64,000 nucleotides of DNA from Mustelus asterias. Its lineage: Eukaryota. Positions 18,530 through 63,587 of this stretch are shown here, one piece after another (positions within the stretch are counted from its first letter, which is position 1; every line of letters starts with the position of its first letter). A program made the translations under genes and the position numbers. The stretch is taken from positions 62,001 to 126,000 of the forward strand of contig NW_027590219.1 in assembly GCF_964213995.1 (NCBI RefSeq). The letters run 5' to 3'. The notes beneath the pieces were generated by a model that was not told where the DNA came from, searched no databases, and was given only the letters and a program-made list of their open reading frames with translations.

Positions 18530-19040
18530 TACACACATCATCAATCTGCTTATTTATGTCCAAATGTAAAGCTTTAACATGGCTGGCAGCTTGAAGATTT
18601 TCAGCTTTTTGTGTCCAGGACAGGAAGCAGTGAGCATGGATCTGTCAATCAGCCTCAATCAGCACCTTCAGGAGAATTGGGAGGGTGAATATTAGATACA
18701 GCAGAGTGAGAATGGAGGGAGAGTGTGTGGAATGGAGATTTATGATTTTTGGGGAATGAGAGAGGAAAGAATGTTCCATAAAAACTGGAATTGTCTGTTC
18801 TGAATTTCTATTCTGTACTGACACTGATGACTTTTGTAAACTCCTTTTACAGGATATCAGAGGGTGAGGATTTACAGACAGTGTTCCAGTGCGCTGAGTG
18901 TGGAAAGAGCTTTAACCAGTTACACAGCCTGAAAAAAACATCTCAGCATTCACAGTGGGGAGAGACTGTACCCATGTTCTGTGTGTGGATGAGGCCTCAA
19001 CTGATAGCCAAACCTGGAGAGTCACAAGGACACCCGCACC

Positions 19041-29200: not shown

Positions 29201-29784
29201 TGGTATTTGTCGCGGTTCGTCCCGAGCAGCTCGGTGACGCAGGACTCTGTGCTCTACGGGCTGTTTCCGGGGACGCACACCGAGACAAATATCAACTGCT
29301 GCTGGAGGGTCATCAACTCGGTGAAGGACGCGCTTTGGTCCGCCCGAAACTTGCTGATCTTCCAGCTGAAAGAATTGTCCTCGACCGAGTGTTGCAGACT
29401 GGCACATTCCAAGGTCCAGGACTACGTGCTCAGGGACGCGCTCAAGCTTGGGGCAGCCGCCGCCATGGCACAATGGGGAAAGGCCACCGTGTAAAGCGTC
29501 TCAACCGAGGCAGACCGAGGGCCAGGTAACTGCAGAATACTCTCGGCCTGCGTAACTGTGTGCCAACCTGAAAAATAACGGCACACAGTAAACTCTGACA
29601 CATGTATATAGTTTTAAGAAATGAAATGTAATGGAATGTAATGTTTTTGTAAATGAGCACGGTATTGGACTGTAAAAATGATTCTTTTTTACACTGTTTA
29701 TGACTTTTGGATCTGTAATTTTGCAATGTTTTATTGGAGAGTTTTTTTTGTGTGAATAAAGTATATTTTTGAAATAAAAAAAAA
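26275..29784 (+). mobile_element. Tx1-clade (L1 group) non-LTR retrotransposon, 5'-truncated
   Basis: APE endonuclease (LINVYAP, GGDFN, SRIDF, SDH) with frameshift ~26725 and TAG 26987; RT in ORF 27014-29494 (WRPISLLN, LDQEKAFD, YMDD) and C-terminal CPRSGC..E...H...C; 3'UTR with AATAAA and A tail. Confidence 0.9.
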
Positions 29785-38887: not shown

Positions 38888-41800
38888 TCAGGATGTCGAT
38901 AGCAGAGAGAGACATTGAATGTTCCTTTGTACAAAGGAATTGAACCATTCCAAAACAGTGCAAAGGTGGGCAAGTGAGTTCGATTACTAATTGCCCCCTA
39001 GTGTCCCAAGATGTATAAATTCGGTGTTTAGCGGGATAAATATGTGGTGTTACAGGGATAAAGCATGAGTAAGATGCTCTGTTGGAGAGCCAGTTCAGGC
39101 TCGATACGTCGAATGACCTCCTGCTGCAAAATAGGGATCCTATGGTTCAATCACTGAGTGTTAACCTGTGAGTTCCGGAATTGGGGTTAATGCTTATATG
39201 ATGCGATCTTAGTTGATGCTGAGGCAAATAAAATTCTTCCCCAAGACATTTAGACACTGATTAAACAAACAGTCAAATAACCAATATATTTTTGCGAGGA
39301 GATGTGAGACGTGAGAAATTTTAGCTGGAAAATTATGTTCGGCAGACAGGTGCTGCCAAATGGAAAGATGAATGCTAATGATATCAAAGAGCAACCAATG
39401 CTTGCTAATTCAACCTCCATAAACAGACTCGATACGCACAGTATTTCCTAAATAACCAGTACGTGGTAGAATAATGAGTCTCCACCCTAATAATGAGTCT
39501 CCACCCTATATCAATATCCGAAGCTCTAATTTCCATGGCACCCAGGACCTGCTTCAGACTTTCTCTCTTCACAAAGTGACTGCAGTGCTTAAACCGCCCT
39601 CTCAGTAATAAAGGAAGTCAGGGATGCCAACGTCACAAAATGACCAATATGGAAATCATCCTGTGTTTGTAGTTAATCATTTCATAGATTGGATACATTT
39701 TTGAGAACTGAAACACATTGAAATTGACCAAAAACTGTAAAGATATTTTGTAACTAAAGGAGGAGCTGTACCCATTATCCAAAGTTCTTATCTGCTCTCA
39801 TCTCAACACTATAAGTGAACTTGTGCACCCGGTCTGCTGTGTTAACGAGGGAAGCACTGAGGGATAATAGATATGGGGCTGAATGGTGGACCCACAGCAT
39901 CTACGCGTGGCAAGGTCTATGTGTTATCGATTGATTTATGCAGCCCAGGCAATCGTTTTAATCTCACACCATTGATTTCAATGTTGTTGAACACAAGTGA
40001 AATTTTATAAGGTTTAGCGACACACTATTCCTGGAGTCCCCGATAACCCTGTAGGAATATTTGTAGATGCCATTCTGTCATATGCTGCTAGTGAATTCAT
40101 GAAGGTACTTGAAGTTTTACATGTCCCAGTGCACTGCCCGACACAAGTTCGAAAGTCCTATTGCAATCCGTCAATGTTAAAGGGCAGCAGCGACTAACAT
40201 GCGAGCAGAGACATGGCCACAAGGCCAGGTGTTTCCTGTCTGTTCAGCAAACAGGAAAACGCGCAGTGAGTGTTCTGAGGCTGCGCAGACAGTGAGCTGC
40301 TTCGGGATGACACAAAGTATAACTCAATACCAATTGTTCAGCTTCTCAGGAATCATTTCTTCCTGGAGGGAACAAATATGTTTGTGGGCTTCCCTTCTCT
40401 CAACGCGGCTCTGTGAAGACATTCACTCAAATTACTGTCAAGTTGATCATGAAAATAAAATTACATTTGTCCAGCAGATAAGAAATATTTCTGAGCCGCA
40501 TCGTCCCGCCGAACTCTGTCACTCTAAACTGGGCGGAGGCAGCAAAATCGCTCAGAGATGTAATGGTGGCCTCGACAGTATGTTCAAAAAGTAATTAAGT
40601 TCAAATAGAGAATAACAGTCTTTTAACAGAAGCATTTCATCCAAGATTTCCGTACGGAGGTGCGACAGATAAGAAGACATGCATAAATTGGACTCTCTGT
40701 CCTTCGAGAATATTGTTCTCCAAATAGAGACAGTAAAAACTTCGGAAGTTGTTCTTAGAACAAATAGGAAAAGGCTGATTTTCACTCGGACAAAGATTTA
40801 TTTTTATTCCAGGTGTTACAGATTTGAACTTCTTGCTTGAGTTGCTGCTGGAGTGAAGTCTATTCACTTTTCCCTTGTGAAGATGTTAAAATCAGGTTGT
40901 GAATACATGCTGTATTCGGACTCCACTGGATTCTTGAACTGCCGATCAGACTGGACTTGTCACTGATAGATTTCTTGAGGAAAGTGAATGGATCTGACGT
41001 GCAATTTATGCATTTTCTCCACATCGCACCAATCCATTTCCCCTGGATTTAACCTGAAAATTTTAACCCTAATCCTGTCCACGGCCTTCAACTGTTTCTC
41101 GGAAATGGTTCGTTGAAGTATGCGGTAAAACAGTGCAAAAACAATGTACATAATCCAGTGCAGGCCGAATATGATTTGCAAACATTTTCCATATGCATTT
41201 CCTTCACTCGCCTGTGTCTGTGCTGGAAGATATGATGATTCGATGATCCGATGCTGGGTTGGTGACTCGTTTCCTTTTCAAAAATGAAGGCCTCATTAGC
41301 TGCACAGGACAAGGAGGTGGATATAACTGTCATTGGTATCTTTTATCAAACGGCAATTGCCATTTCACACATCAATTCGGAGCATCAATTAGTCAGACGC
41401 GAGGAAACATTATTTTCTGAACACAGCTTTCTCAAATAATTCATTCCTGGAGCGTTTGGTATTTCAGAAAGTGTTGGAAGGACAGCCCGGTACCGATGGA
41501 CAAAACTCGGTGAACATTCAAGTCTGATCGCAGTAACCGACAGTCGGGACGATGCTGCGCTCCTTCCTGACTCTAATTACATTGCAGCTTCTCAACTGTG
41601 AGTTATTATTGATTGAAAGTATCCCGATGTCTATTGAGAATTCCCGAACATAAAATTTTAACAAATATATAGATACATTGAGCTTTCGTAATAAAAATGT
41701 TGGTGACCTATGTAAGGGAAAGTTGATAATTTGAATAATAATTGTCATCTGGAGGTAATGGGATATTAATGTACATCAATTTAACAATGAGAGGAGGCGA

Positions 41801-44139: not shown

Positions 44140-45630
44140 GAAGCAAAAGCTGTAGAGAAGGAGTATACTGTGGAGGGATTGTCTATAGAGTCTCTGTGGG
44201 TGGAAGTTCGGAGTGGGAAGGGGTCGATCACTTTGCTGGGAGTTTTCTATAGGCCGCCCAATTGTAACAGGGAGGTGGAGGAGCAGATAGGGAAACAGAT
44301 CCTGGAGGGTTGCAATAATAGCAGAGTTGTTGTGATGGGAAACTTTAATTTCCCAAACATAGATTGGAATATCCCTAGGGTAAGGGGATTGGATGGGGAG
44401 GAGTCCGTTAGGTGTGTTCAGGAGGGTTTCCTGACACAGCATGTGGACAAGCCGACAAGAGGAGAGGTTTTACTTGATCTGATACTGACCAATGAACCTG
44501 GAGAGGTGTCAGATCTCTCAGTGGGAGAGTATCTTGGGGATAGCGATCATAGCTCTATCTCCTTTATGCTTGCATTCGAAAAAGAGAGGATCAGGCAAGC
44601 TAGGAACGCATTTATATGGAGTAAGGGGAAATATGAAGGCAGAAGGCAGCAAATTAGAGGAGTAAATTGGAAGGAGGTATTCTTGGGGAAATGTACTGAA
44701 GAGAGGTGGCAGTTTTTCAAGGAATGTCTGTCTTGAGTTCTACAGGACAACGTTCCGAGCAGACAGGGAGGAATTGGTAGGTTAAAGGAACCGTGGTGCA
44801 CGAAAGCTGTGCGGGACCTCGTCGAGAAGAAAAGGAAAGCGTACAAAAGGTTCCGAGAGCTTGGCGAAGATAGGGATCTAGATGAGTATACAGCTTGTAG
44901 GAAGGGACTAAAGGAGGAAATTAGGAGAGCCAGAAGGGGTCACGAGAAGGCCTTGGCAGGTAGGATTAAGGAAAACCCTAAGGCGATCTATAAATATGTG
45001 AAGTGTAAAAGGATGAGATGTGAAGGAATAGGGCCTATAAAAGGTGAAGGCGGGAAAGTCTGTACAGAACCAGTAGAAATGGCAGAGGTGCTTAATGAGT
45101 ATCTTCCCTCGGTTTTCACAGAGGAGAAGGACCTGGGTGGATGTACTGCGGGCTCAGTTCTGGTCGCCTCATTACAGGAAGGATGTGGAAAAGATTGAAA
45201 GGGTGGAGAGGAGATTTACAAGGATGTTGCCTGGATTGAGTGGCATGCCTTATGAGGGTAGGCTGAGGGAGCTCGGTTTTTTCTCCTTGGAGAGACGTAG
45301 GATGAGAGGAGACCTAACAGAGGCTTTTTCCCAGGGTGGAAATGGCTGCTCCGAGAGGACACAGGTTTAAGGTGCTGGGGGGTAGGTCCAGGGGAAATGT
45401 TAGGGGGAAGTTTTTCACACAGAGGGTGGTGGGCGAGTGGAATCGGCTGTCGTCGGTGGTGGTGGAGGCAAATTCAATCGGGTTTTTTAAGAGACTCCTG
45501 GATGAGTTCATGGGACTTAATAGGATGGAGGGTTATAGGTAGGCCTCAAATGTAGGGATATGTTCGGCACAACTTGTGGGGCTGAAGGGCCTGTTTTTTG
45601 CTGTAGTTTTTCTATTTTTCTATGTTTCTA
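44140..45630 (+). mobile_element. CR1 LINE fragment with internal deletion
   Basis: EN/linker peptides (YRPPN, DSDH) jump at ~45150 to QFWSPHYRKD; CR1 tail. Confidence 0.85.
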
Positions 45631-46880: not shown

Positions 46881-48374
46881 TGAAATGGGTCAAAGATTCA
46901 GTGGGAGAATTACTGAAAGCTGAAAAGTGGAGTTAGACACGGATAGAAAGACGGAATGGATGAAGAGGGTCTAGAGATTCTAGTTGGACCATCGAGAGTT
47001 TGAAAAATTTGAGTAAATATTGAAATGTTTTCCCACAATTCTGGCAACGAGGAGCAAATAAGTGGAAGGTATTTGATATTGTCTATTGATAGTGAAGAGT
47101 TAAGAAGGATGACTGAGTATTGTCTGCATTGGAAATAAATGACGCACTCTCCGTATTGTGGACGGCGGTGCAGAGATATTCGAGTAACTTTATCATTGTT
47201 ACTCTGTGTATCAAGTCATACATTTCATCAACCCAACTGGAGACAAGAATCACTGTCCTGTTGATTCTATTATGTAAACTGGGGACTCAAATGGATTAGG
47301 AGATTTGACTGACACAAAATCTCCCAGTTTGGGAATACGGTAACACGTGGTTAAAAGATTTTTTAAAAGATGGAATGAGACCAGGATATTCATAGGCCAT
47401 AATATCACGGGTGTGGTAATTTGAATAAAACTTTTTAACATCAAGTCCTTGCAAATCATATCATGAAGAAATAACACAGATCCTCGGTGTTGACATTGTG
47501 ATGTATGGTTTTGACAGTTTCATTCATCTCGTGTTGCAGCGAAGATTAATTTTCAAAATTTCATTTCAGGCAGACCAGGAAACAGTCAGGCTGACCGATC
47601 AGGTAATCGCCCTCCAAGTTCATATCTGACATTTGACTGCACTAATCCATCCAACTGAATGTTAAATCCTGAGACAATTTCAGTGTCTTTGTGTTCAATG
47701 TTTCCATTCTGGGTCTGCCTGTCAGTTGTGAAGGAAAATGGTCTTGCACTGTTTTTCTCAAAATCTTTCATTGCTGCACCCCGATTCAGTACGACATTAA
47801 ATTAGGTCCCTGAGGAGCAGGGTGAGAAGCAACGCGGCCCCGCTACCGTTTGGAGATAATTTTTCACTTCCCGAGTTACCAGCCAGCGCTGACATGCAGC
47901 GCAATTGCTATTGCCCCTCCCACCACCGACATATTAGGGTTCCGCCGAAAACCCGCCGCATCTTTCCGCCCCTGGAAGGGCTGGAGACTACCTGACTGTC
48001 TAATTCAGCTCGGTGCAGCAGGGCGGCCCTGTTTCGACAGTGATGGCAATATCGAATCGATACTAGGATTGACATTTCACGATGTTATTCCAGGCAGTAT
48101 GATAGACCGTGGAACATGACAGTCCTGACTGGCACTGATTCAATCAAATGCGCCTATCGACACTCCCGCCTGATGCAGCAGAATGATGCTTCAAACTTCC
48201 AACTGATTCACGGATTGTTCCCACTGTCTATTTATATTCCCGCTTCCACTGCAATCTCGAATATTCTGTCAGGGTTTGTTGAGGTTCTGGACACACTCGA
48301 TGTTTCAAATTATTCCGATCTGACCTGCCGTATCAGCCGGCCAATAACTGTTGGTTTATTTCTGTATTTTACAG

Positions 48375-48689
48375 AGGCGGTGAAGCTGAGACTGGCGAAT
48401 GGGCAGAGTCGGTGCGCTGGGAGAGTGGAGATTCACTACAAGGGACAGTGGGGGACCGTGGATCATGATCTCTGGGACCAGCCGGACGCCGGTGTTGTGT
48501 GTGGGGAGCTGGGCTGCGGGACCGCGCTCTCTGCACCGGGCGGGGCTCACTTTGGGGAAGGATCCGGACCCATTGTGACGTATAATGTTCAGTGCGAAGG
48601 GAGCGAGACCGCTCTGCGGGACTGTCGCTCTTGGACATGGGGTCACGATAGCGATCCGCACTCCAACGATGCCGGTGTGATTTGCTCAG
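48375..48689 (+). CDS. SRCR domain 1 exon (6 Cys; lacks C2/C7)
   Basis: [48 protein letters not shown]...[15 protein letters not shown]; tttacag|..|gt; 315 nt. Confidence 0.9.
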
Positions 48690-51600
48690 GTAAAAAAAAA
48701 CAAATCTCTCCATCATCTACAGCCTGCTCTCCGGGAAGGGGCGGATAAAGGTTTCTGAGACTGTCCACAGTGGTAAAGAGAGTGGTGGATAATTTCAATA
48801 TTCTGAAAATAGAAGTGTTCTTACATTAACACCAGGATTTAAGTTTATAATAAAGTAACAGCAATGAGAGTGATTAACAATGACCACAACCGTGCACAGG
48901 CCAGCTGTGTCCTTGAGCTGAGCGCTTGCTGTTAGCTATGTTGAGGAGAGGAGCTGTTCGCTCCTGGTTCCTCACTGATCAGTTCCGATCACCATTCAAC
49001 AAATAATGAAGCATTCCAGGACCATACAGAGCAAATCCTGTCCAACAATCGGGCTTCTGCTGAGCAATCGTTTATATTCATCTGTCCGCAGCGTTTGGGT
49101 TATTCTGCTGTTTTAACTTAACTCTAAATCGTTCCATTCTTAATGCCTATTTTTTGCATCAGTGTCCAGAAATTGTCCCCTCAGATGAAAATGTGGTCCG
49201 AACCCCAGAGATGCGGTCGGAGGCCTCCCGATCCCCCAACCCTTCGAGCTCTCCAGCACCACCCCTCTCCCAGTGCCTCAACCGACACAGCCACACGCCT
49301 GGAGACATAGACGGACCTCTCAGCAACTACGTGGAGGAAGGGGGTGGGTGGGGAAGACCTGCGGGGAGAGAGGGGGAGGGGGTGATTGAGGGAAGCCCAG
49401 GCAAGCTAATATGCCCCGATCTTGCCTGTGCAGTGTCAAAAGGTCGGGCATGCTTTGATCGGCTGGCTGTGCACGTAATTATACTTATGGGGAGTCCGGA
49501 TCATGCGGCACTCCGTCGGAATTGGCGGCTGTCGCTGAGTTAAATCTGGGTGTCTCGGTCCATGTGTTTGACATTTACTGACTATTGATTGTGGAGGCCA
49601 TAGAGCGCTTATCCAATCACTGCGGCTACTTTCAGAGCAGCAATCACTGGTCAGATTGAACGTGTTCCAAGAGCGGAGTGAGGATGCGAAGGGTCTGGAG
49701 GAGATTCATGCGTGCTGGAAACTTCCCTCTACTCTTCCCTCGCCACGAATTCTGCCACAGCTGCTGAATTGTTCCAACATTTTCTGATTTTGTGTGAGAG
49801 GGGACTGTCTGGATATCTCCTGTCTCTCCAAGCGTTTTAATAGCTGTCAAGTAAAGCCTCTTCCTCAAATGTTTGATACTATTTGGGAACTTACCTCCCT
49901 CTCATACCCCGAATCTGATGAATACCAACTGTTCCTATATGATTTCCCCTCGTGTTATTTTTTTCGGACGAGTTTACCTTTCGAGTCTGTCAGGGAGAGA
50001 AATCAGAAATGTTATTGGGAGAGTGTTCCAATGAATAAATTGTGCTGGATCAATTTCTTCAGTAGGTTGTATTTCAAACAAATGTGCGGAAGTCGATACT
50101 TTCTCCAGAATAAAATGAAGGAAGATGAGTTGTTTTAACATTTACAGCTGCTGCAGCTTCAGGCAGATTTCACACAGTGTAAACTGACAGAAGGAGATGT
50201 TGTCTAGACTCAGGAACCAGGAGCCTGCGACACTCTCACTGGACTATTTTCCAGAACAGGAGATCCTTTCACGGATGCAGTTCCCTGAATTGCCGATTCC
50301 ATTCCAGATATGGACTGAACAAAGTTACTGAAACTTGAAGCAGAAACTCCCCCCCCCCGCCCCCCACCCCCCGCCCCCTTTCATAGTCGAGCCATCTCAA
50401 TAGAAATGCTAAAATTCCAGGAGGATTTTTGATTACGTTTTGCACCTGGCCTTTGCATTTTGTGATCTGTACACATGGACCCTCAATAAAGCTCGAGTGT
50501 TGTTTGCAAATCACCATTGAGACATTCTGGGATCCACCGTTTCATTTCTGGTTGAAGTCCTTTCAGAACGTTCATTCTCAACACACCGAAAAATAAATAT
50601 AGGATTTCGTTTGATGCCTATCAGTTCGAACATCCCTGGGCAAATAATTCCATATGTTATTGATTCAGGTCCGCCTGTTGCACATTGTGATATTTCCCAT
50701 CACCAGGCGGTAGGGGGCAGTTATACTCAGAATTTATTGAGATAAACCAGCACTCGGTTCAATTTAAGGGAGGAATGGGGAAGAGTGTTCCAGAGGAATC
50801 GCTGTGAGACTGAACACGGCTTCTGGAGAGTATGATAGTTGACACCTATTGAACTTAATGAAACATCTTTAATTGTAGAATTTCTTAATGCAGAAGAAGG
50901 GCATTCAGCCCGTTGAGTCGAACCGACAGAGTATCTAACCCAGGTCGCACCCCACGTTTTTACCTCGATAATTCCCCTGAACGATACATCTTTAGATTAA
51001 GGGGCAACTAAAAGGAACCAGATTCAGAACCAATCATGATAGAATCTAATTAAGCGGATGTGAATACTTTTTGATAATAATTAGTGTGACTCTAATCTGT
51101 TGTTATTCAGCCCACAGATTTCCAAAACTAGTATCCAGAGCTTTCCCATGCTCCGGCAGATTGGAGATCCATAACGGTATAGAATCTGGCACAGTATGTG
51201 ACCTTGACTTGGATTGGAATGACGCCAGAGTGGTCTGTGCTGAACTTCAGTGCGGAATCGCCATTTCCATTAGAAGCGGGGCTTATTTTGGAGAGGGCGC
51301 TGGATTAATATGGAACGATAGACTTGAATGTAAAGGCAGCGAGACAGGCCTGATGTACTGCACCCTTGTCCCTGTAAATCGGTCCGAGTGCACCCACAGG
51401 AACGATGTCAGTGTGATCTGTTCCGGTGAGTGCAGACTTGTGAATATTAGAAAAATTTCTCTTAATATTTCAGCAATGGAGAGATTACATTTCTCTTTCT
51501 CTCTAACATGGACATACCTAACCAGACCTTCATATTTCACTGTAAATTTGTTGTAATTTTGAAACATTATTTCAAAATATGCACGTTTTTTGCAAATCAG

Positions 51601-54600
51601 AAATGTCTGCGTTTTTATTCGTGGTCTGAAATGAGCAGATTATTATTGTTGATTTCGAACCTTGGCTAAACATAGGCTTCTCTTAAACATTTGATATGAC
51701 ATTATTTGTGGAGCTGTTAGGTAGACGTACTCTGCATCCCAAGCCATGAACCCACTGCATGGATTATAGCAGACAATAACTGTGTTTGCATTTTAAAGAG
51801 GTTATTGGCGCAGCAGAATAAATGAAGCGTTTTATATTTCAAATATCTTGCATTAAACAAAATAATTGAATGAGCTTAGTAAAGCCATTGCAAGTGCATG
51901 TTTTACATCCAGCTGTTCAGGTGGAAAATTGTACTAATGTGTAGAGGAGATTTCAAAGCATGGATAACGTGTCAATAATGTGCATAACCTCCAGAATAAT
52001 ACAGTAATCTTTCGAACGACATTTATTTTCTGAATTATCCGGTCCGAGATTCTGTCTAATTTTGGAGGTGCACTTACCATTTTATGCTCAGCTTATTGCT
52101 CCAGAGGATATCGTTTTATAATTGCATCGTCATGCAATGCTTAAACACCGTGCACTTTATTTAAAATGTATACTGGACCTGCTGCAAAGACAGTATATTC
52201 TGCCAATGGCACATGAGCTTTTCTCTTCAGGATGGACTGTTCTCTTTGGGTTGAAGCACCTTCCTAAAAGCATCACACATAATGTTAATTAGTTCTATGT
52301 GATCATTTGTGAATATTGGGCAATGATTGTAGATGCAGATATAAAGTGTGTTTTCCCGTTTACAAAAATAAACTGTCATGTGTTTTTCTAATTTCGATGT
52401 ACAAATTATTTGGGTCTGGGTTTGTACCTGAAACAGGAAATCATGGGCCGAGATTGGTTGGTGGAAAGGACAGGTGCTCCGGCCGTGTGGAAGTGCTGCA
52501 CGGAGAACGCTGGGGGACGCTCTGTGATGCTTACTTTGCTTTCGAAGACGCCAGTGTGATCTGTGAGCATCTTCAGTGTGGAGTGGTAGAGAAAATCCCG
52601 AGAGGTGCAGCCTTTGGGAAGGGAAATGGCACAATGTGGAAGGAGAACTACAGCTGTCGCGGCAATGAGTCCCGGTTGTTGGAGTGTCCGGTTTCATCCG
52701 TGGAAGAGTATCACTGCTCACATGAAAATGACGCCACTGTCATCTGCACGGGTGAGTCCCTAAATCAAGATAATGAAAACACGTGGTGCTGGGATTAGTG
52801 AGGATATTTCTGCATTTAACCGCCCAAATGCTACCCCGTCCTTGAGTTCCATAAACATGTATTATTCATCCGCTTATCAATGTATTTGCTTCAAATATGG
52901 AGCAGCCACGTTGGCTGTTCAGCCTCCTGTCTGTCTGTGCTCAGCAGCATCACATGACATCCTTCACCACTGCACCGGGGGAGCTGATCTGGCGAAAGGT
53001 AATCATCATAGAAATCATAGAAACCCTACAGTGCAGAAGGAGGCCATTCGGCCCATCGAGTCTGCACCGACCACAATCCCACCCATGCCCTACCCCCACA
53101 TATTTACCCGCTAATCCCTCTAACCTACGCAGCTCAGGACTCTAAGGGGCAATTTTTAACCTGGCCAATCAACCTAACCCGCACATCTTTACAGGACGCC
53201 CCGGAAAGAAAAATAAAACATAATAGTTTGGAATATGATGACAGTAACAATTTAATAAAATCATTTAACAACTTTACAAATCTCCAGGTAACTTCCCTCT
53301 GTAAATTGAGACCAACACAACTAAAGACAAATCGGCAATGGGACTAATGTGCTGATCAGTGGGGTGGGTTTCAAATATTAATTTGAGTTAATTTGCTGCA
53401 CTGTAACCACTGGTCTGCATGTCTTTCTTCGCCTAGATGAAAACTGGTCACTGAGATTGATGAATGGGGGAAGTCGGTGTGATGGGCGAGTGGAGATTTA
53501 CCACAATCACAGCTGGGGCAGAGTGCACGACAGCCTCTGGGACCTGAATGACGCGAACGTGGCCTGCAGACAGCTGGGCTGCGGCGAAGCCGAAGCCTCC
53601 TATAACAATTCAAAGTACGGAGAGGGTGAAGGGCCTGTGTGGGTGAATGATGTCCGGTGTGAAGGAAACGAATCGCATCTCCGAAAGTGCAGCATATTCA
53701 CATTGAACCCGCATCGCAGTGACAGCATCGGCGTCGGGGTTCTGTGCTCAGGTGAATAAACAGGTCACTTTTCCAGAAACATAAAGGGAAAAATGTAATC
53801 TTGGTCAACTGGGGAATATACTTTACTTCTTCCTCGGGAACACGTAGCTGAGATATTTCACACTGGTGCTTGGATGCAGGACAGGACGCCCCGGAAAGAA
53901 AAATAAAACATAATAGTTTGGAATATGATGACAATAACAATTTAATAAAATCATTTAACAACTTTACAAATCTCCAGGTAACTTCCCTCTGTAAATTGAG
54001 ACCAACACAACTAAAGACAAATCGGCAATGGGACTAATGTGCTGATCAGTGGGGTGGGTTTCAACAGCACAACGAAGAGAGAGGGGGCCACGTTCAAGAA
54101 GTGGATTGCAACCTTGTGTCCCAGTCACTCACATAATGACTGTTTAAATAAGTATGAAGAAAGGATTGCTGCATGAAGCGTCAGATGGGAAGGAAAGCCA
54201 AAATCTTAGTTCAAGGTAATTTATTGGTAACAAGTAAGGCTGACATGAACACTGGAATGAAGTTACAGTGAAATTCCCCGAGTCGCCACAGTCCACCGCC
54301 TGCTTGGGTCAATGCACGTCTTTCAGAATATGGGCGGAAACCGGAGCAAACCCACGCAGACACGGGGAGAATGTACAAATTCCACACAGACAGTGATCCA
54401 AGCCAGGAATCAAACCCAGGTCCCTGGTGTTGCGAACACAGCAGTGCGAACCACTGTGCTGCCGTGTGGATTGGATCCATGAGCGGTGATTTTCATGATC
54501 GCTCGGGGGAGTGGGGCTGGCTATGGCAGAGCGGTGAGCAGGAGTGGAGAGCATCGATATCTCTGAACATGACCATGATATTTTGAAGCCAATTTGTATT

Positions 54601-57600
54601 GACGGAAGAGAGTCCAATGCAGATCAAATAGCCAGGGCTGGTGGTGCTGTTGGTCAGTATGGGGGCAGGGGAAGGGATTGGGGAGGGAGGGGGTGCGAGT
54701 GCGGGTTTATGCGTGCGCTGGTCGCTGCTGGTGAGTTGAAATGTGCGCGGTTCGTTTCGAAAAGTTCTGATTGCATTCACGTGTTTTGGAGGGGCGTCCA
54801 TCAGAGTAGTTTTGAAATCTGCATTCTTGAGATAACAAGGAACTGATGAACATTTTGGGTGAGTTCGCAAGAAAGGACACTGTCTGAAAGGTCAAGTCAC
54901 TCCCAGCCTACTTGCATATTTGCAGTACCTCTGATTTGTTCCGATATATATGTGTGAACTGGTGAAGTATCTGATGAAGTTTGCATGGCAAAATGAGGCA
55001 GTGAAAAACAAAGAAGCAAATGTCTGCTTAAAACATTCTGTGTGGAACAACTAATTACCACAATTACATAATTGATAACAAAGCAAAACAAGCTGCAATG
55101 AGTGGGTCAGATCCAAACCGAAAACCGTCGCATTATATTCCAGTTGGAAATGTGAATATCTAGAAGATTTGTAAACTCTCCATCATTTATTTTGCCTCCG
55201 AACAGAAACTGTTTTTTCTAGAGCATAGATTAATGTCGCTGGCAACGGCAGTTAAAATGCAGGTTTTAATTGAGCTGGAAATTATACAACAGTTTGAATT
55301 TAGCAACGAGATGAATATGTTTAAGAAACATAATATGAAACTTTCATTATTCTATTAGAACACAAGCAGTTAAGGCTCTCTGGCGGTGGAAGCCGATGTG
55401 CGGGCCGACTGGAGATTTATCACAATGGGACCTGGGGCTCAGTTTGTGATGATTCCTGGGATCTTACAGACGCTGACGTGGTTTGCAAGCAGCTGGATTG
55501 TGGACACGCATTGCGGCTTCCTCTTCATATATCGGCTGGACCTGACGCAGACCCAATTTGGTTGGATGAGCTGGAATGCTCCGGGAGTGAATCATTTCTC
55601 TGGGAATGTCCCCATGCATTGTGGCGTAACCATGACTGTAATCATAATGAAGATGTGAAGATCATGTGCTCTGGTAACTGTCCTAACTTCAGTTACATTA
55701 GAACTTTCATACATAAGATATGTTCCTGATATACCTCAGGACGGTGCTTACGAAGGACATTCTGTCAAATCCGGCTCTGATTTTTTAAAATTCTGGACGT
55801 AATTATTGCTAAAGTATTTCGACAGCCGACTTCTGATGTGTTGCCTTATGTTTCTTTATCCCTCATTTCCTGACATAAATGCATCTTCCACTTAATATCA
55901 CTGACTATTCTGATCACGAGCCTTAAATTTCATCAGGTTATGTGTAAAATTTTCCGGATAACTACATTATTTTGCAAAGATATTTGATTTAATCACTTAT
56001 TTCTCAAGAAGCATGCTGTCACTTGATTCTTCGCATCAAAATTCGCTCCATTCCTCTTAGCAGGACGAAAACTAAGTTGTCATCGGCATGTGTATCCTGC
56101 CATGTATTAACATTTTGATACATACTTTGCAGTCCTCTTCAGTATTAACTATACAAACCAGTTTGCTGCCACAATAGACGTTCATTTTTACTGCCGATTA
56201 CAAAGTCCCAAGGAGCAGCAACCGCAGCGCCAATCCATGTGAATCTCACACCGGAACTTTTGCTACTTAAGTAACGAGAAACTTTACAAACTTTTTAAAT
56301 CTACTTTGATACTGATTGCCTAGTTTCCCATTGTCTTTCATGGGCTTTCACTATGGGAACTTTTTGAAGCTCTTCTGGTCGTCTGCGCACAGAGCATAAA
56401 GCATTGGCCCTCTCACCATTCCGGCAAGCAATCAATCGGGTCCATCATTCAAATATTTCGATTGAAATTCAATGTTGCTTATTCTTGATTATATCTGTAT
56501 TTCTGTGACCTTTGTGAAATAATTATGGCAAACCGTGAACTCAACTTAGACATATATATATATATATACATATATATACCCACAGTGCACTGTGGATACA
56601 GAATTGTTAACTGAACCATGTGGTTATTTATTACTTGCTTGACAGAGCACAAAGAGCTGCGTTTGGTGAAGGGAAAGCATCGCTGTGAGGGCAGAGTGGA
56701 AGTGTTCTATAATGGGACCTGGGGAACAGTTTGCGGTGAAAACCTGTATCAAGATGCTGGAACAGTGATCTGTAAACAGTTAGGTTGCGGCACACTAGTT
56801 TCCATCGACTATGACGCTCGCTCATTCGGAGAAGGATCCGGACCTATTTGGTTGGATGAGGTCGAGTGCCTTTCACACGAGTCGACCCTTTGGCAATGCC
56901 AGGCAGACCCGTGGGGTCAACACAACTGTCTTCATCGGGAAGATGCAGGTGTCGTTTGTTCAGGTAACACAAACAATCATTTTGCTTGCGGGTGTGATTT
57001 GAAATATTGATGTTCCTCATGGAGTCAGCATGTTTGTCTTATCAACAGGGGGAGACATACCGAAGCAAGAGCAGGACAGTGCAAACGGCTGCAAGCGAGA
57101 ATCAGGTGTTTTCTCAACTTTAATAAAACAGCTATCTGCTTGTATTCCTCTCTTGTGCTACATCAAGGTTAATAATTTATTTATTATCTTTGACAAATTT
57201 AGGGCAAAGTTTGCGCTTGGCTGGAGGTAACAACAACTGCTCCGGGAGATTGGAGGTATTGTGTAATCGAGCCTGGGGCACGGTTTGTGATGATTCGTGG
57301 GGTATGAACGATGCCAGTGTTGTCTGCAGACAGCTGGGCTGTGGCTCCGCTCTAATGGCCTCAGGAGGGGCCGCTTTTGGGCAGGGTAACGGTCCTGTCT
57401 GGCTGGATGACGTCAGGTGTGCCGGAAGCGAAGCCTTTCTGTTTGACTGCCCTTCTTCGTCATTAGCTCAAGCTGACTGTGATCACAAGGAAGATGCCAG
57501 TGTGATTTGCTCCGGTATGTGTTCCACTGATCGGTTCCGTTTGGGACTGTGCGACGTTGTCCGGCCCATTTTTGCTGAATATAATTCATGTTTTCAGATG

Positions 57601-60600
57601 TCTTTCTGACCAACAATGCAAATAATTGTGCTCTTTTTACCATGTCTTCATCAGGTCCGGAATTATCTCCGACTTCTCCGCCCACACCTTCAGGTATATC
57701 TCTGTAATAAATATCAATCACGATTACGGCTAATTTTACATTGGGATAAATAATTATCACACATTGGCATTGCCTTAATTTTGTCAATTTCTAACGACAT
57801 TCTGAGTGTTTCCTGATCATATAAGTATTTAAAAACATGGTGGACATTTTATCTCACAAAACTTCTTGGAATCTTTCATCAAGGACATGAAGATGAAAGC
57901 ACCTCCACCCCTCTGGTGATCTGCATCTCACTCGGTGTCCTGTTAATCTGTGAGTTAATCGCCCTTTTGGCAGTAATGCAGAGGAGATCATCAATAAAAG
58001 GTAAGGCTCGAATCATATCCCTGAACCCACGCTGAGTCATGGATGTTGCTTCATACATCAGAGGGAATTCTCTGCCGTTTTGCAAAGAATGACTTGGGTA
58101 CAATTCAGAAACAACTTAACTGAGTATTGGCCAGCAAGTTATTTCAAGCCACATGAGAAACAGTAAAATATTACATATAAATGAGGGAGTTATCTACATT
58201 CATATTCCTCCTCCACCCACCAGTACATGAGACATGGAATGGGATTTATTTTTGTTGCAACAGATTAAAACGTTGATTGCAAGAAATTAAACTCCGATGG
58301 CCTGCACTCTCTGGTATTAAAGGAGATGGCAGCAGAGATAGTGGGTGAATTAGTTATGATATTCCAATTTGTCATAGATTCTGGAAAGATACCAGTGGAT
58401 TGGAAACACGCTTATCTGACACCCTTATTCAAAAAAGGAGAGACGCAAAAAGTGGCAAACTGTAGACCACCTACAGGGGCAGGTGGGACCTGTACAAGAG
58501 AGACGGGTTACACCGAAACTACAAGGGGACCAATATACTTGCAGGGAGATTTGCTAGTGTTATTGGGGAGCGTTTAAACTAGATTTGCAGGGGCGTGGGA
58601 ACCAGAGTGCCAGAGCAGATAGTGGAGCAGGGGTAAAAAGACAGGTTAGTTCAAGCAAAATCACAAATGGAAGGGTAGAGTGTGGTGGAAATAATTTTTT
58701 GAGGTGTGTCTATTTCAATGCCAGGAGTATTGTGGGGAAGGCAGATGAGCTGAAGGCGTGGATAGACACGTGGAAATATGACATTATAGCCATTTGTGAA
58801 ACTTGGCTACAGGAGGGGCAGGACTGGCAGCTCAATGTTCCAGGGTTCCAATGTTTCAGGCGGGATAGAGGCAGAGGGATAAAAGGTGGGGGGCTGGCAT
58901 TGTTGGTCAGGGAAAATGTTACAGCGGTATTCAGGCAGGATAGATTAGGGAGCTTGTCTACAGAGGCCCTATGGGTGGAGCTGAGAAACAGGAAAGGTAT
59001 GATCACATTAATGGGATGGTATTATAGACCACCCAATAGTCAGCGAGAATTGGAGGAGCAAATCAGCGGAGAGATAGCTGACAACTGCAAGAAACACAAA
59101 GTTGTGATAGTAGGGGATTTTAATTTTCCACATATAGATTGGGACTCGCATACTGTTAAAGGTTTCGACGGGGTAGAGTTTGTAAAATGTGTTCAGGAGA
59201 ATTTTCTACATCAGTATATAGAGGTGCCAACTAGAGAGGATGCGGTATTGGATCTCCTATTGGGAAATGAGTTAGGGCAGGTGATGGATGTGAGTGTGAG
59301 GGAACACTTTGGATCCAGTGATCATAATGCCATTAGTTTCAACCTGATCGTGGATAAGGATAGATCTGGTCCTCGGGTTGAAGTTCTGAACTGGAAAAAG
59401 GCCAAATTTGATGAAATGAGATGGGATCTGGGAAGTGTGGATTGGCCCAGGCTGTTCTCTGGTAAGGATGTAAATGGAAAGTGGGAGGGCTTCAAAGGAG
59501 AAATTTTGAGAGTGCAGAGTTTGTATGTTTCTGTCAGGATTAAAGGCAAAGTAAATAGGAATAAGGAACCTTGGTTCTCGAGGGAGATTGTAACACTGAT
59601 TAAGAGGAAGAGAGAGCTGTATGAAATGTACAGGCAGCAAGGAACACATCAGATGCTCGAGGAGTATAAAAAGTGCAAGAAGCTACTTAAGAGGGAAATC
59701 AGGAGGGCTAAAAGAAGACATGAGGTTGCTTTGGCACACAGAGTGAAGGAAAATCCAAAGAGCTTCTATAGGTATGTTAGGAGCAAAAGGATAGTGAGGG
59801 ATAAAATTGGTCCTCTTGAAGACCAGAGTGGTAGACTGTGTATGGAACCAAAAGAGATGGGGGAGATACTAAATGGCTTTTTTGCATCCGTATTTACTGA
59901 GGAAACGGGCATGGAGTCTACGGAAATAGGGCAAACTGTTAGGGAGGCCATGGAATCTTTACAGATTAAAGGGGAGGAGGTGCTCGCTGTCTTGAGGCAA
60001 ATCAGAGTGGATAAATCCCCAGGACCGGACAGGGTATTCCCACGGACCTTGAGGGAAGCTAGTGTTGAACTTGCAGGGGCCCTGGCAGACATATTTAAAA
60101 TGTCAGTATTCACGGGGGAGGTGCCGGATGATTGGAGGGTGGCTCATGTTGTTCCGTTGTTTAAAAAAGGTTCCAAAAGAAATCCGGGAAATTATCGGCC
60201 AGTAAGTTTGACGTCGGTGGTGGGCAAGTTATGGGAAGGTGTGATAAGGGATAGGATCTACAAATATTTGGATAGACAGGGACTTATTAGGGAGAGTCAA
60301 CATGGCTTTGTGCGTGGTAGGTCATGTTTGACCAATCTATTAGAGTTTTTCGAGGAGGTTACCAGGAAAGTGGATGAAGGGAAGGCGGTGGATGTTGTCC
60401 ACCTGGATTTCAGCAAGCCTTTGACAACGTCCCTCATGGGAGGTTAGTTAGGAAGGTTCAGTCGCTAGGTATACATGGGGAGGTAGTAAATTGGATAAGA
60501 CACTGGCTCAATGGAAGAAGCCAGAGAGTGGTTGTGGAGGATTGCTTCTCTGAGTGGAGGCCTGTGACTAGTGGTGTGCCGCAGGGATCGGTGTTGGGTC

Positions 60601-63587
60601 CATTGTTGTTTGTCATCTATATCAATGATCTGGATGATAATGTGGTAAATTGGATCAGCAAGTTTGCTGATGATACAAAGATTGGAGGTGTAGTGGACAG
60701 TGAGGAAGGTTTTCAAAGCTTGCAGAGGGATTTGGACCAACTAGAAAAATGGGCTGAAAAATGGCAAATGGAATTTAACGCAGACAAGTGTGAGATATTG
60801 CACTTTGGAAGGACAAACCAAAGAAGAACGTACTCGGTAAATGGTAGTACTCTGAAGAGTGCATTGAACAGAGGGATCTGGGAATACAGGTACAGAATTC
60901 CCTAAAAGTGACGTCACAGGTGGATAGGGTCATAAAGAGTGCCTTTGGTACATTGGCCTTTATAAATCGGAGTATCGAGTATAAACGTTGGAGTGTTATG
61001 GTAAGGTTATATAAGGCATTGGTGAGGCCGAATTTGGAGTATTGTGTACAGTTTTGGTCACCTAGTTACAGGAAGGATGTAAATAAGATTGAAAGAGTGC
61101 AGAGAAGGTTCACAAGGATGTTGCCGGGACTTGAGAAGCTGAGTTACAGAGAGAGATTGAATAGGTTGGGACTTTATTCCCCGGAGCGTAGAAGATTGAG
61201 GGGAGATTTGATAGAGGTGTATAAGATTTTGATGGGTATAGATAGAGTGAATGCAAGCAGGCTTTTTCCGCTGAGGCTAGGGGAGAAAAAAACCAGAGGG
61301 CATGGGTTAAGGGTGAAAGGAGAAAAGTTTAAAGGGAATATTAGGGGGGGCTTCTTCACGCAGAGTGTGGAATGAGCTGCCAGATAAACATTTTAGAAAA
61401 ACTTGAACGGGTTCATGGATGAGAGGGGTGTGGAGGGATATGGTCCAAGTGCAGGTCAGTGGGACTAGGCATAAAATGGTTCGGCACAGACAAGAAGGGC
61501 CAAAAGGCCTGTTTCTGAGCTGTAATTTTCTATGGTTCTATGGTTCTATGATGGGGATCACGTGGATGTGGCATATCTGGATTATAGAAGGCATTGGACA
61601 AGAGTGTTAGATCCCAGGGGCTGGGCACAGAACATTGGCTTGGATAGAGGATTGATTGAGTGAGAGAAAGCATAGGGTCGGGATAAATGGGTCCTTCTCT
61701 GGAGTGAAATTGACTGTAACACGACGGATGACGCCGTTTTCAGTTTTCAACTGTTTACAACCGATTTAACTGACCTGCGATTAGGGCCAGAGTGCAACAT
61801 AGCAAGATTCGCGGAGGATCCGAAGATGAGTGGGAAAGCAGGCTCTGTTCAGATTATAGAGTTTACAGTTGGATATTGACAGGCTAGGAGAATGGGCCAG
61901 AATGTGGCAAATGGAGATTAATGTGGATACGTGTGTGGTCATCCATTTTCACGTCAAAACATTAAAAGGGTAAATGATTATTTATATGGGACGAGCATTC
62001 AAAGTCTGTCAGTGCAGAGGGATCTGGGTGTCCTTGTGCATGAATGACAGAACATTAATTTGCAGGCGCAGCATTTCATAAGAAAGGCAAATTGAATATT
62101 GGAATTTATTACAAAAGGACCCGGTTTGAAATGTAAAGAAATGTTGTTAACACTGGATAAGGGCCTTCGTGAGACTACACCTGGAGTATTGTGTCCAGAT
62201 TTAGTCTCCGTACCTGATGAAGGAAGTGCTGACACTGGAGGCAGTTGAGAAGATGTTCACCAGATTGATTCCAGGGATGAAAGGGCTACCAACGAGGAGT
62301 GTTTGAAAACTTGGGCTTATACTCGGTGGAGATCAAAAGAATAAGGGGGGATCTGATTGAGGTATATAAAATGCTAAAGGGATTGATGAGGTGGATGTTG
62401 AACAGATATTCCGCTTTGTTGGAGAGTCTACAACAAAGGCTCATAGATTAAGAGTGAACCAAAGTAGTTCCAAATCTGGGGTGAGGGACAAGTTCCCTCA
62501 GAGTTTTGTGAACCTGTTGAACGATTGCCCAAAGTGCAGGGGAGACAGAATCAGTCAGCAGATTCAAGAACGAAAGAAATATGTGTCTCAATGAAAGCTG
62601 GACAAAGCTCAAATGAGGCAGGCAGGTTTGTGGATTTGAAAGCAGGATCAGATCAGCCATGATCATATAGCATGGTGGAGCGGGCTCAAATGGCTGAATT
62701 GCCCAATCTCGCTCCTATTTCCTATGTTCCACTGTGTTCATTAATTATTTGGCAACTGGCATTTTGTTTCCACTTACAATTGGTTGCAAACCAACACTGA
62801 GTTTTTTGCCGTGTCAAGTTCTCTAACAGTACTCGACCCATTTTGAGACGTGATGGTATGATTTTACACAATTATCAATGCCAACACTGCATCCCAGCAA
62901 ACGATTCCACTAATATTACAGGATCAATGCCGGTGGTATTGTGAGTAGCCTCCCTCTCTCTGAGTCAGATGTTTCACGTTCGGTCCCAAGACTTTATACG
63001 AAAAAAGTGTCAGAACTTCCTGTAACACCCTTCCAAGGCAACAATGTCATGCGGTGAGAGTGGGAGATAATCCTGTTCGGCCACGCCTGGTATGGAATGG
63101 CGTTCCTCTGGCGACAGGTTACCGACAAGCTCCATGTTAAAACATGGCCATGGAATTTGTTGAATGTCTACCTTTTGCACCACTAGTTTTGAACAGATAA
63201 ACAAAAACATTGCATGTATCTGAACTCGCACCGAGTTCTCTTGATTCATATCTTATGCGCTGACCTTCATTGGTCTCTAAATGTCTCAGTGTTCCTTGTG
63301 ATGGAGGCAGTGGTATCATCACTGGATTGATGATGCAGAGAAACAAAATAAATTCCACCGGACCCTGGTTTGAATCTCACCTCGACATAGAGTGAGATAT
63401 GAAATCAATAAAAATCCTGAACTGAAATATAGTTCCAGAATGTAACAATATGCTAACTGCCCCGATCTTCCTCCAACAGAACCTGTTGCTGGTAGCTGGG
63501 ATCCACCTTCTGTTTTATACCAAGCCATTTATGAAGAAATAGATAATATTCCTCCCGCCAAGCTATACACTCAGTCTCGTGCTTCAG
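48375..63587 (+). CDS. Multi-exon group-B SRCR type I membrane receptor, WC1/SCART/CD163-family-like (signal-peptide and last exons not located)
   Basis: 11 exons, all AG/GT and phase 1-1, no stops: 7 SRCR, linker, stalk, TM, cytoplasmic AIYEEID. Confidence 0.85.
51111..51425 (+). CDS. SRCR domain 2 exon
   Basis: [19 protein letters not shown]...CAELQCG...[13 protein letters not shown]; 315 nt. Confidence 0.9.
52437..52751 (+). CDS. SRCR domain 3 exon
   Basis: [30 protein letters not shown]...[12 protein letters not shown]; 315 nt. Confidence 0.9.
53005..53190 (-). mobile_element. HE1-like SINE 3' half
   Basis: Near-identical to 10081-10254. Confidence 0.8.
53191..54064. repeat. 184-bp direct repeat pair flanking SRCR exon 4
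   Basis: 53191-53374 and 53881-54064; only one mismatch noticed by eye. Confidence 0.9.
53437..53751 (+). CDS. SRCR domain 4 exon (6 Cys; lacks C2/C7)
   Basis: [34 protein letters not shown]...[13 protein letters not shown]; 315 nt. Confidence 0.9.
54211..54465 (-). mobile_element. V-SINE variant (diverged)
   Basis: tRNA-like head GGCAGCACAGTGG..GGTTTGATTCC and V-domain, different tail. Confidence 0.65.
55359..55673 (+). CDS. SRCR domain 5 exon
   Basis: [33 protein letters not shown]...[14 protein letters not shown]; 315 nt. Confidence 0.9.
56646..56963 (+). CDS. SRCR domain 6 exon
   Basis: [29 protein letters not shown]...[14 protein letters not shown]; 318 nt. Confidence 0.9.
57049..57105 (+). 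CDS. Inter-domain linker exon
   Basis: caacag|..[18 protein letters not shown]..|gt; 57 nt, phase 1-1. Confidence 0.65.
57203..57514 (+). CDS. SRCR domain 7 exon
   Basis: [32 protein letters not shown]...[13 protein letters not shown]; 312 nt. Confidence 0.9.
57655..57693 (+). CDS. Pro/Ser/Thr-rich stalk exon
   Basis: catcag|..[12 protein letters not shown]..|gt; 39 nt. Confidence 0.65.
57884..58000 (+). CDS. Transmembrane exon
   Basis: [38 protein letters not shown]; aag|..|gtaagg; 117 nt. Confidence 0.8.
58470..61545 (+). mobile_element. CR1 LINE (end of ORF1 + ORF2 with frameshifts) in SRCR gene intron
   Basis: ORF 58585-60447 APE + RT start, then 60528-60905 and 60908-61375; ttctatgg tail. 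Confidence 0.95.
61546..62730 (+). mobile_element. Older decayed CR1; likely continuous with 58290-58469 and split by the younger CR1
   Basis: Degenerate RT motifs ([20 protein letters not shown]); CR1 tail ~62725. Confidence 0.7.
63480..63587 (+). CDS. Cytoplasmic exon with AIYEEID tyrosine motif
   Basis: ctccaacag|..[35 protein letters not shown]..|gt; 108 nt, in phase with TM exon. Confidence 0.75.

Follow-up and report, generated by a model that had tools for sequence, protein, structure and literature searches.

The gene described here, which lies in a 64,000-nt stretch of Mustelus asterias DNA (the window), almost certainly codes for a membrane receptor of the CD163/WC1/SCART family. 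Taken as a whole, we read it, with a probability of roughly 0.6, as one of about 60 family loci coding for a variable, microbe-binding co-receptor of lymphocytes that would signal via the tyrosines of its tail. Among the lymphocytes, gamma-delta T cells would be the most likely carriers; expression mainly on these cells comes close to even odds without reaching them.

Exon Structure of the Gene and Its Surroundings

As the earlier note had proposed, the exons form an intact spliced frame. All predicted exons are bordered by AG and GT, are of phase 1-1 and free of stop codons (Table 1), and with the predicted splicing a single open frame of 946 residues extends from domain 1 (D1) to the stop codon. 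Each of the seven exons for the scavenger-receptor domains D1 to D7 (7/7) has a Pfam SRCR match, with E-values from 1e-23 to 1e-34. The domains contain 6, 8, 8, 6, 8, 8, and 9 cysteines, respectively, the range for group B SRCR domains being 6-8, and the ninth cysteine of D7 may pair with that of the interdomain linker exon. D1 contains the sequence WGTVD and is devoid of C2 and C7, and D4 lacks the same two cysteines. An origin in a cartilaginous fish is supported as well, since D1 is 75% identical to a Chiloscyllium protein, the other matches listed being ~50-66% identical.

The peptide of the small exon ahead of D1 resembles the segment before domain 1 in the elasmobranch-type protein P0277. 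Two scans for a signal-peptide exon gave no convincing candidate, and no further SRCR domain was found upstream of D1 within the window; a single SRCR domain precedes the b/c pair. Four read runs over the locus cover the introns as in DNA and contain no exon joints, and therefore carry no information on expression.

Table 1. Features of the receptor gene and its surroundings (positions in the window; TM, transmembrane).
Feature	Position	Strand	Remarks
Upstream conserved element, probably non-coding	40200..40302	.	E-box, two ETS-type sites
Small exon ahead of D1	47570..47602	+	33 nt, 11 codons; AG..GT borders
SRCR D1	48375..48689	+	6 Cys, C2/C7 absent; hypervariable; under positive selection among paralogues; in the position of an 'a' domain
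SRCR D2, b/c type	51111..51425	+	Pfam; b/c clade 99/99
SRCR D3, b/c type	52437..52751	+	Pfam; b/c clade 99/99
SRCR D4, n type	53437..53751	+	6 Cys, no C2/C7; n clade 100/99; diagnostic of CD163c/SCART
SRCR D5, d position	55359..55673	+	With fish d domains 97/86
SRCR D6, e type	56646..56963	+	e clade 99/98 (first careful tree), 96/94 (second)
Interdomain linker exon	57049..57105	+	One Cys; between e and d'
SRCR D7, d' type	57203..57514	+	d' clade 96/93 (first careful tree), 87/71 (second)
Pro/Ser/Thr stalk exon	57655..57693	+	AG..GT borders
TM exon	57884..58000	+	Glu within helix, shark-specific; AG..GT borders
LINE-type retroelement in TM-tail intron	58500..61540, borders approximate	+	Endonuclease and frameshifted RT (Pfam)
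First cytoplasmic exon	63480..63587	+	YEEI motif; AG..GT borders, in frame
Four further tail exons after the end of the window	G000:C187, L011 1580-1690, 2178-2309, 2343-2366, 4955-stop 5001

In the genome, 62 loci with a TM exon were found, 54 of them with D4 upstream and the tail exon downstream; many of the ~60 loci are defective, and their number may be too high owing to unplaced scaffolds that are near-identical. The TM-tail intron of this gene and of three close copies measures ~5.6 kb, compared to ~2.7 kb for most of the other close copies.

The element upstream of the gene is a candidate promoter or enhancer. It is probably non-coding because it contains indels, and among the rows listed no other upstream stretch could still be aligned to a divergent paralogue (77.5% over 80 nt). 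In addition to its E-box and two ETS-type sites, it comprises a RUNX-type site in 4 of 5 close paralogues.

Linkage to the MHC, which is known in chicken, was rejected for this assembly, in which all MHC-I matches (133/133) are located on C8, whereas the receptor array is located on C22. Synteny with the PEX5/CLSTN3/CLEC region, a trait of strict WC1, and with the mammalian CD163 and SCART1 regions was examined by means of EMG1, MRPL51 and FUOM, proxy markers from human 12p13 and 10q26. EMG1 was found on small contigs and MRPL51 on C6, and FUOM was not found in this search of the shark assembly.

Assignment to the CD163/WC1/SCART Family

The WC1/CD163c-type identity claimed in the earlier note is upheld by a per-domain phylogeny, which separates the gene from both CD163A and DMBT1. 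D2-D4, D6, and D7 fall into the b/c, n, e, and d' clades and D5 groups with fish d domains, the values in Table 1 being those of trees that covered the CD163/WC1 types and DMBT1; both careful trees are based on 104 columns, with bootstraps that are unsettled. The clade of D4 (100/99) unites n domains of a treeshrew SCART-type protein, turtle, emu, gar, and teleosts. The treeshrew protein (P0407) is named 'hypothetical' in the database and owes its SCART label to its architecture and its YEDI tail.

D2-D7 form a b/c-b/c-n-d-e-d' cassette, as in turtle WC1-like proteins, and the hallmarks of the CD163 family (Herzig 2010), i.e., membrane-proximal e and d' domains, the interdomain exon and a TM segment, are present. 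The N-terminal m and l domains of SCART are absent and D1 joins neither of them in the tree. Likewise, the h-i-j-k domains and the YREM tail of CD163A are missing from the shark gene. The n domain departs from strict WC1, which has none, and with D4 being of this type, the gene is a WC1/CD163c hybrid like those of chicken and turtle. Searches of the ESM Atlas returned generic SRCR clusters, with 'antigen WC1.1-like' on top for D4 as a lead only, and in PDB searches CD163 was best by summed score, which is not diagnostic.

That the gene instead codes for a DMBT1/SSC5D-type SRCR protein, with a superficial likeness to WC1, is hardly credible. The orthologue-like proteins of sharks and rays are mostly auto-named DMBT1-like, and long DMBT1-like proteins are the top matches of D1 by summed score, but summed scores favour long repeats. 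In the trees the deer DMBT1 domains form a clade of their own (99/93) with none of D1-D7 inside, and none of the seven joins the DMBT1-like domains of shark, bird or turtle. Near-identical SRCR repeats with CUB and ZP domains, the marks of DMBT1, are absent, whereas a TM segment and a WC1-type tail are present, so that this reading is refuted by the trees and the homology of the tail.

Diversification and Ancestry of Domain 1

Among 17 close copies, positive selection was found in D1 only, with an omega of 3.59 (p 6e-7) compared to 0.42-0.82 for D2-D7; gene conversion can inflate such values. Omega was 3.75 in the 13 intact-looking copies and 3.26 on a tree built from the other domains, and divergence amounts to 0.057 in the D1 exon vs. 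0.020 in 600 nt of adjacent intron. A multigene family with its diversity concentrated in domain 1 is also the pattern of WC1 (PMC3511184).

Column variability in D1 follows that among the a domains of Bos WC1 (12 distinct sequences; rho 0.55), the controls D2-D7 giving 0.02-0.20. The six D1 positions which match the cation sites of SALSA (PMC7043408) are more variable than the others (entropy 1.27 vs. 0.33, p 0.0003), these sites having been mapped onto D1 by spacing after its variability was already known. At the predicted cation sites, D5 still has its full set of six acidic residues and D1 has lost most of them. The variable columns of D1 would form a ligand-binding face, so that the microbial ligands would differ from copy to copy. 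As D1 diversifies fast at the spots which also vary in cattle, a diverse array of co-receptors for sensing microbes is likely present in sharks.

WGTVD and the loss of C2 and C7 had been regarded as a mark of descent from the WC1 'a' domain. This was not supported in that form, as D1 is unplaced in both careful trees, and an AU test neither rejected nor showed a clade of D1 with WC1 'a' (p 0.554). In a fast tree, the first domains of teleosts did form one group with shark D1 and WC1 'a' (0.962), two of the rows labelled WC1 'a' in that tree being d domains. C2 is kept in 91 of the 92 scorable first domains, most of which are from turtle, bird and alligator. Because the first domains of sauropsids keep C2, the likeness of D1 to cattle, including the missing disulfide, is probably convergent.

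Cytoplasmic Tail and Transmembrane Residue

The tail comprises YEEI, a second tyrosine motif (YYT) exactly 31 residues on, and then YDD, a set of three motifs also present in relatives from coelacanth, turtle, alligator, birds and mammals. YEEI fits the cytoplasmic motif Y-(Q/E)-(D/C/E)-(I/L), which defines the WC1/CD163c branch (PMC2906472). The spacing of 31 residues is shared by the shark gene and 7/7 chosen proteins (two shark-type proteins and one each from coelacanth, turtle, alligator, bird and the mammalian WC1 type). All three motifs occur in this order in 49 of 120 proteins, and the middle motif is rare in teleost tails (24/147 representatives). Shark members possess an acidic TM residue (Glu), which is absent from the other vertebrates compared. 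Together with the ~60-locus expansion and the selection on D1 only, the two further conserved tail motifs and this residue go beyond the earlier note.

Distribution and Age

The cassette with this tyrosine tail was found in sharks, a ray, gar, sturgeon, teleosts, coelacanth, turtles, alligators, birds, platypus, wallaby, and placental mammals, in a survey directed at the jawed vertebrates. This spread from sharks to mammals agrees with the age proposed before, and the WC1/CD163c-type architecture most likely dates to the ancestor of jawed vertebrates. One shark protein is already labelled WC1.1-like in the databases. A literature search, with most subscription journals outside its range, found no study of the CD163/WC1 family in cartilaginous fish, and the family phylogeny in PMC2906472 ends at chicken and platypus.

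Proposed Function and Alternative Explanations

The receptor is quite probably a diversified ligand sensor with tyrosine signalling. When clustered with an antigen receptor, its YEEI motif would be phosphorylated by Src-family kinases and activation thereby boosted. This mechanism is modelled on cattle WC1, which binds bacteria, is phosphorylated by Src and co-signals with the TCR (PMC8356672). The shark-specific Glu of the TM segment might, speculatively, pair with a basic residue of a partner receptor. In cod, a CD163-like gene, m130, marks the tcrg/tcrd cluster; m130, whose identity is unsettled there, also marks most CD8-negative, MCP1b-negative T cells (PMC9276791). Membership of the CD163 family does not fix the cell type, because bovine CD163A is broadly expressed (PMC2906472). 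In an atlas of the bamboo shark, no marker named scavenger, DMBT1, WC1 or CD163 was present among the 8,645 rows listed for the major cell types.

A stand-alone pattern-recognition or scavenger receptor on myeloid, B or general T cells, equally diversified and of the same family but not tied to gamma-delta T cells in particular, is unlikely but a serious contender. It would suit the expression of CD163A, which in humans is myeloid but in cattle broad (PMC2906472), the presence of cod m130 beyond the gamma-delta cluster (PMC9276791), the ETS, RUNX and E-box motifs upstream, which suit blood cells generally, and the absence of T-cell support among the shark marker rows listed. However, the shark gene lacks the h-i-j-k domains and YREM of CD163A and has the n domain and the YEEI-type motif of the gamma-delta-associated WC1/SCART branch, and its multigene, D1-variable pattern is that of WC1 (PMC3511184). 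Quite improbable is a diversification of D1 that, instead of widening the detection of microbes, serves to escape a pathogen attaching or entering via the receptor, or to keep up with a polymorphic host ligand. Positive selection on the outermost exposed face suits any arms race, CD163 of the pig is a virus entry receptor, and the loss of most acidic cation ligands from D1 is a hint that its ligand is a protein, like that of CD6. But escape usually works on alleles of one gene, whereas the divergence seen in the shark runs through many paralogues in parallel, like that of WC1, the variants of which differ in bacterial binding (PMC5949365).

The variable microbe-binding lymphocyte co-receptor stays our preferred reading. 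It can be extended, tentatively and with considerable doubt, to a shark WC1-like repertoire of dozens of germline-encoded gamma-delta co-receptors, which would dock into an activating receptor complex via the shark-specific acidic TM residue. Their outer domain would lack the disulfide that is also missing in cattle WC1 and would have diversified on the corresponding ligand face, independently and ~450 million years apart. If this were true, the gamma-delta system of jawed vertebrates would have included a variable SRCR co-receptor from the outset, with a reduction in mice and humans.

With the full cassette and signalling tail present in a shark, this receptor type would go back to the time at which T-cell receptors arose. 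Parallel selection on D1 in sharks and cattle would mark a recurring route by which one SRCR face is turned into an innate repertoire, and the variable columns name residues relevant to the poorly defined ligands of WC1. The long-standing idea that gamma-delta T cells accompany expanded WC1-like genes becomes testable in existing shark single-cell data; in most shark annotations these genes are concealed by DMBT1-like labels.

Comparison With Known Receptors

The closest known systems are the WC1/CD163c hybrids of sauropsids (CD163_1 and CD163_8 of chicken, Herzig 2010; 'antigen WC1.1-like' of turtle, e.g., P0444). They share the seven-domain order first-b-c-n-d-e-linker-d', a similar TM start, YEEI followed by YYT 31 residues on and by YD[DN], and the multigene state. 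In contrast to the shark gene, their first domain nearly always has C2 and they have no acidic TM residue. A further difference is that shark D2 and D3 cannot be cleanly assigned to b and c.

Bovine WC1 (13 genes; a-b-c-d-e-d-b-c-d-e-d') shares the multigene state, a six-cysteine first domain varying at the same columns, the b, c, e, and d' domains, the YEEL/YEEI signalling motif and the YDD repeats, but has no n domain and comprises 6 or 11 domains. A gamma-delta T-cell restriction and the binding of bacteria have been demonstrated for WC1 alone.

CD163c-alpha/SCART1 (m-l-b-c-n-d-e-d') has in common with the shark gene the n domain (100/99), the b-c-n-d-e-d' cassette and a tyrosine motif, which is YEDI in SCART1. 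It differs by its m and l domains and by its one or two genes, the shark gene having a single first domain, which is variable, and dozens of copies. The CD163-like or 'WC1.1-like' genes of teleosts and gar, with cod m130 as a putative member, share the x-b-c-n-d-e-d' cassette and YEEI and are multigene in characins, but YYT is missing from most teleost tails and there is no acidic TM residue. Finally, CD163A (M130), the haemoglobin-haptoglobin receptor, shares the b, c, e, and d' domains, but is a single gene with h-i-j-k domains and a YREM tail.

Structure and Family Placement of the Receptor

The exons proposed from sequence alone in an earlier note, coding for seven SRCR domains (D1–D7), a linker with one cysteine, a stalk, the transmembrane (TM) helix and the tail, are all present in the window, and Pfam assigned SRCR to all seven domains. 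Each exon is stop-free, in phase 1-1 and bordered by AG and GT, with the splicing being predicted. A 33-nt exon is located 5′ of D1; no additional SRCR domain was detected upstream of D1 within the 64-kb window, and scans of the sequence upstream of D1 found no leader exon. Beyond the window, the contig (C187) carries four further tail exons of the receptor, and the joined predicted exons, D1 through the stop, encode 946 residues. Among the D1 matches listed, the highest identity (75%) is that to a bamboo-shark protein, and zebra-shark and manta proteins show the same layout, which places the host among the elasmobranchs. A duplicated stretch flanks the D4 exon.

Features of the window
Feature	Position	Strand	Remark
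SRCR exons D1–D7	48375–57514		
TM exon	57884–58000		
First tail exon	63480–63587		
Duplicated stretch	53194–53374, 53886–54065		about 180 bases, both sides of D4 exon
LINE-type insertion	58500–61540		TM-tail intron
Upstream reach of duplicated unit	~38,660		
Non-coding element	40200–40302		ETS, E-box and RUNX-type motifs; conserved to distant paralogue
C2H2 zinc-finger array	1–283	−	single exon; clustered beside receptor gene
C2H2 zinc-finger arrays	3070–3861, 12603–13697, 19008–19901		single exon; same cluster
Young LINE-type copies	16293–18456, 26414–29491, 44005–45600		long open frames
Young LINE-type copy	34502–37152	−	long open frame
RT frame	26990–29491		834 codons, zf-RVT domain

The per-domain trees comprised bovine WC1, serow CD163, a SCART protein of treeshrew, deer DMBT1, other SRCR genes of this genome, as well as turtle, emu, coelacanth, gar and teleost family members; CD5 and CD6 were left out. 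The SCART label is ours and is based on an m-l-b-c-n-d-e-d′ layout and a YEDI tail, following the scheme in the accessible text of PMC2906472. In the two careful trees, one of 94 rows, from which redundant and long-branch rows of an earlier set had been removed, and one of 102 rows including SCART, bootstraps were unsettled; in the former, D2 and D3 fall into the b/c clade (99/99), D4 into n (100/99), D6 into e (99/98) and D7 into d′ (96/93), and in the latter D2/D3 stand beside b (100/75), D4 in n (100/99), D5 beside fish d domains (97/86), D6 in e (96/94) and D7, more weakly, in d′ (87/71). In the 102-row tree the DMBT1 domains remain apart (99/93). The trees bear out the WC1/SCART-like type proposed earlier for the receptor.

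Expansion of the Family in the Genome

The TM exon and the first tail exon have 62 matches each in the genome, and at 54 of the 62 TM loci the TM exon is preceded by D4 and followed by the tail exon, all on one strand. The D4 search gave at least 150 matches among those listed, of which 60 of D4 type were taken. Seventeen family loci are located on the 76.7-Mb contig C22 (49.2–52.8 and 60.8–61.0 Mb), the remainder on smaller scaffolds. Of 38 modelled loci, 17 were free of stop or frameshift flags from D1 through the first tail exon, two of which proved broken on inspection; one further locus is complete apart from its tail within the sequence retrieved, in four divergent genes the flags arose at exon borders that could not be placed, and most of the others are pseudogenes. 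The history of the family is one of birth-and-death evolution. The 17 close D1 exons are all distinct (median difference 20 of 312 bases), and the close subfamily therefore has at least 9 loci even if both haplotypes were assembled; in other subfamilies, near-identical unplaced scaffolds may inflate the total. The LINE-type insertion is common to four near-identical copies (C187, C147, C159 and C88) and thus marks a very recent duplication burst. The member at 51.78 Mb of C22 has an eight-cysteine d-type first domain replacing the variable six-cysteine one.

Three CD163/WC1-type genes on contig C3 (4.25–4.44 Mb) make up a second and divergent lineage, which shares the b/c-b/c-n-d-e-d′ cassette but has a different, eight-cysteine first domain; the one gene with its tail fetched carries YEEI and YYT motifs. 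The two lineages may be older than the split from bony fish.

Diversity and Origin of Domain 1

For D1, omega reaches 3.59 in the set of 17 copies nearest to the window gene (p 6e-7 against 1), and D2–D7 give 0.42–0.82; gene conversion can raise omega. Restricting the D1 set to 13 intact-looking copies gives 3.75, a tree built from the other domains gives 3.26, and pairwise pN/pS is 3.33 (12 equal-length copies). Divergence per site is 0.057 in the D1 exon vs. 0.020 in 600 bases of the preceding intron. Column by column, variability in D1 follows the variability among 12 distinct WC1 a domains of Bos (31 Bos proteins, 19 after filtering), with a rho of 0.55, vs. 0.02–0.20 for D2–D7. Cattle WC1 diversity is concentrated in two regions of domain 1, according to the accessible text of PMC3511184. 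Judged by their spacing, six D1 positions match the exposed SALSA cation sites described in the available part of PMC7043408, and this mapping is supported because the corresponding residues are all acidic in D5 and D7. In D1 these six are the positions that vary (entropy 1.27 vs. 0.33, p 0.0003; Bos a domains 1.41 vs. 0.36) in a test chosen after the variability had been seen.

The earlier note had pointed to the WGTVD of the N-terminal WC1 domain in ruminants. This is a resemblance and does not prove descent. Shark D1 forms a separate clade (99/99); a fast tree grouped it with WC1 a and the first domains of teleosts, neither careful tree places it with WC1 a, and the AU test is compatible with either arrangement (p 0.554). 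Since C2 is kept in 91 of 92 scorable first domains, from 120 listed n-domain relatives (mostly turtle, bird and alligator), the loss of the C2-C7 bond in sharks and cattle would be read more simply as convergence.

Cytoplasmic Tail and Membrane Helix

A profile built from four tails retrieved 155 representatives, thirty of which were looked up; among these are coelacanth, gar, sturgeon, tarpon and other teleosts, turtles, alligators, birds, platypus, wallaby and sharks. The motif order is YEEI, a second tyrosine motif ending in YYT, and YDD, with a YEEI-to-YYT spacing of 31 residues in seven of seven chosen proteins (sharks, coelacanth, turtle, alligator, bird, mammal) and likewise in the window receptor. 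Of the 120 listed n-domain relatives, 49 have all three motifs in this order; the middle motif is found in only 24 of 147 new representatives and is absent from most teleosts. An acidic residue within the TM helix is present in all seven true shark-type database tails, a set excluding one teleost row misassigned by the filter and devoid of this residue, and in 32 of 38 genome copies vs. 0 of 163 other, non-shark tails. In four divergent members (C22, 60.8–61.0 Mb) the first tail motif is YAEI or YAEM where the others have YEEI, and these may be signalling variants.

Upstream Element and Neighboring Loci

The motifs of the upstream element, whose RUNX-type site is altered in the window copy, would fit blood-cell expression, naming no particular cell. 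Elsewhere in the genome, contig C8 holds a very large MHC class I expansion, with all 133 exon matches, 132 of them within 21.6–43.4 Mb.

Proposed Function and Comparison With Known Receptors

The structure, family, expansion and D1 selection of the shark receptor are observed; its mode of action can be proposed as follows. The D1 variants would differ in the ligands bound at the usual SRCR ligand face, which loss of the C2-C7 bond might open up. The TM glutamate could, speculatively, form a pair with a basic side chain in a partner protein. Src-family SH2 domains prefer pYEEI, and the YEEI tail may recruit them by analogy with WC1. According to the available sections of PMC8356672 and PMC5949365, WC1 itself is a Leptospira-binding receptor and a substrate of Src kinases, and it enhances TCR signalling only if the two receptors are clustered together.

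Concerning the cell type, the accessible parts of the respective papers report a likely gamma-delta cluster in nurse sharks (PMC10529500) and, in cod, a CD163-like gene marking gamma-delta cells and other T cells too (PMC9276791). The accessible text and listed marker-table entries of the bamboo-shark atlas (PMC11372145) name no such receptor gene. In the tongue sole sheet of its Supplementary Data 2, as far as available, 'DMBT1 isoform X1' (LOC103393936) strongly marks T cells (57% vs. 5% of cells), and may be a mislabelled WC1-like family member or CD6-like. No lizard or snake occurs among the best 120 of 604 n-domain relatives (turtle query), where turtles, birds and alligator are plentiful. 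Squamates reportedly lack gamma-delta T cells, and their absence from the listed relatives is a lead only.

No description of a WC1-like family in cartilaginous fish was found in the literature covered, which took in few subscription journals. Database labels already hint at the link, as a great white shark protein among the tails looked up bears the automatic name antigen WC1.1-like. Deep ancestry of the receptor type by itself is an expected extension; added weight comes from the parallel domain-1 repertoire in sharks and cattle and from the gamma-delta question, which is directly testable. Turtle WC1-like proteins share the window receptor's layout, first-b/c-b/c-n-d-e-linker-d′, as do the WC1/CD163c hybrids that Herzig described in chicken.
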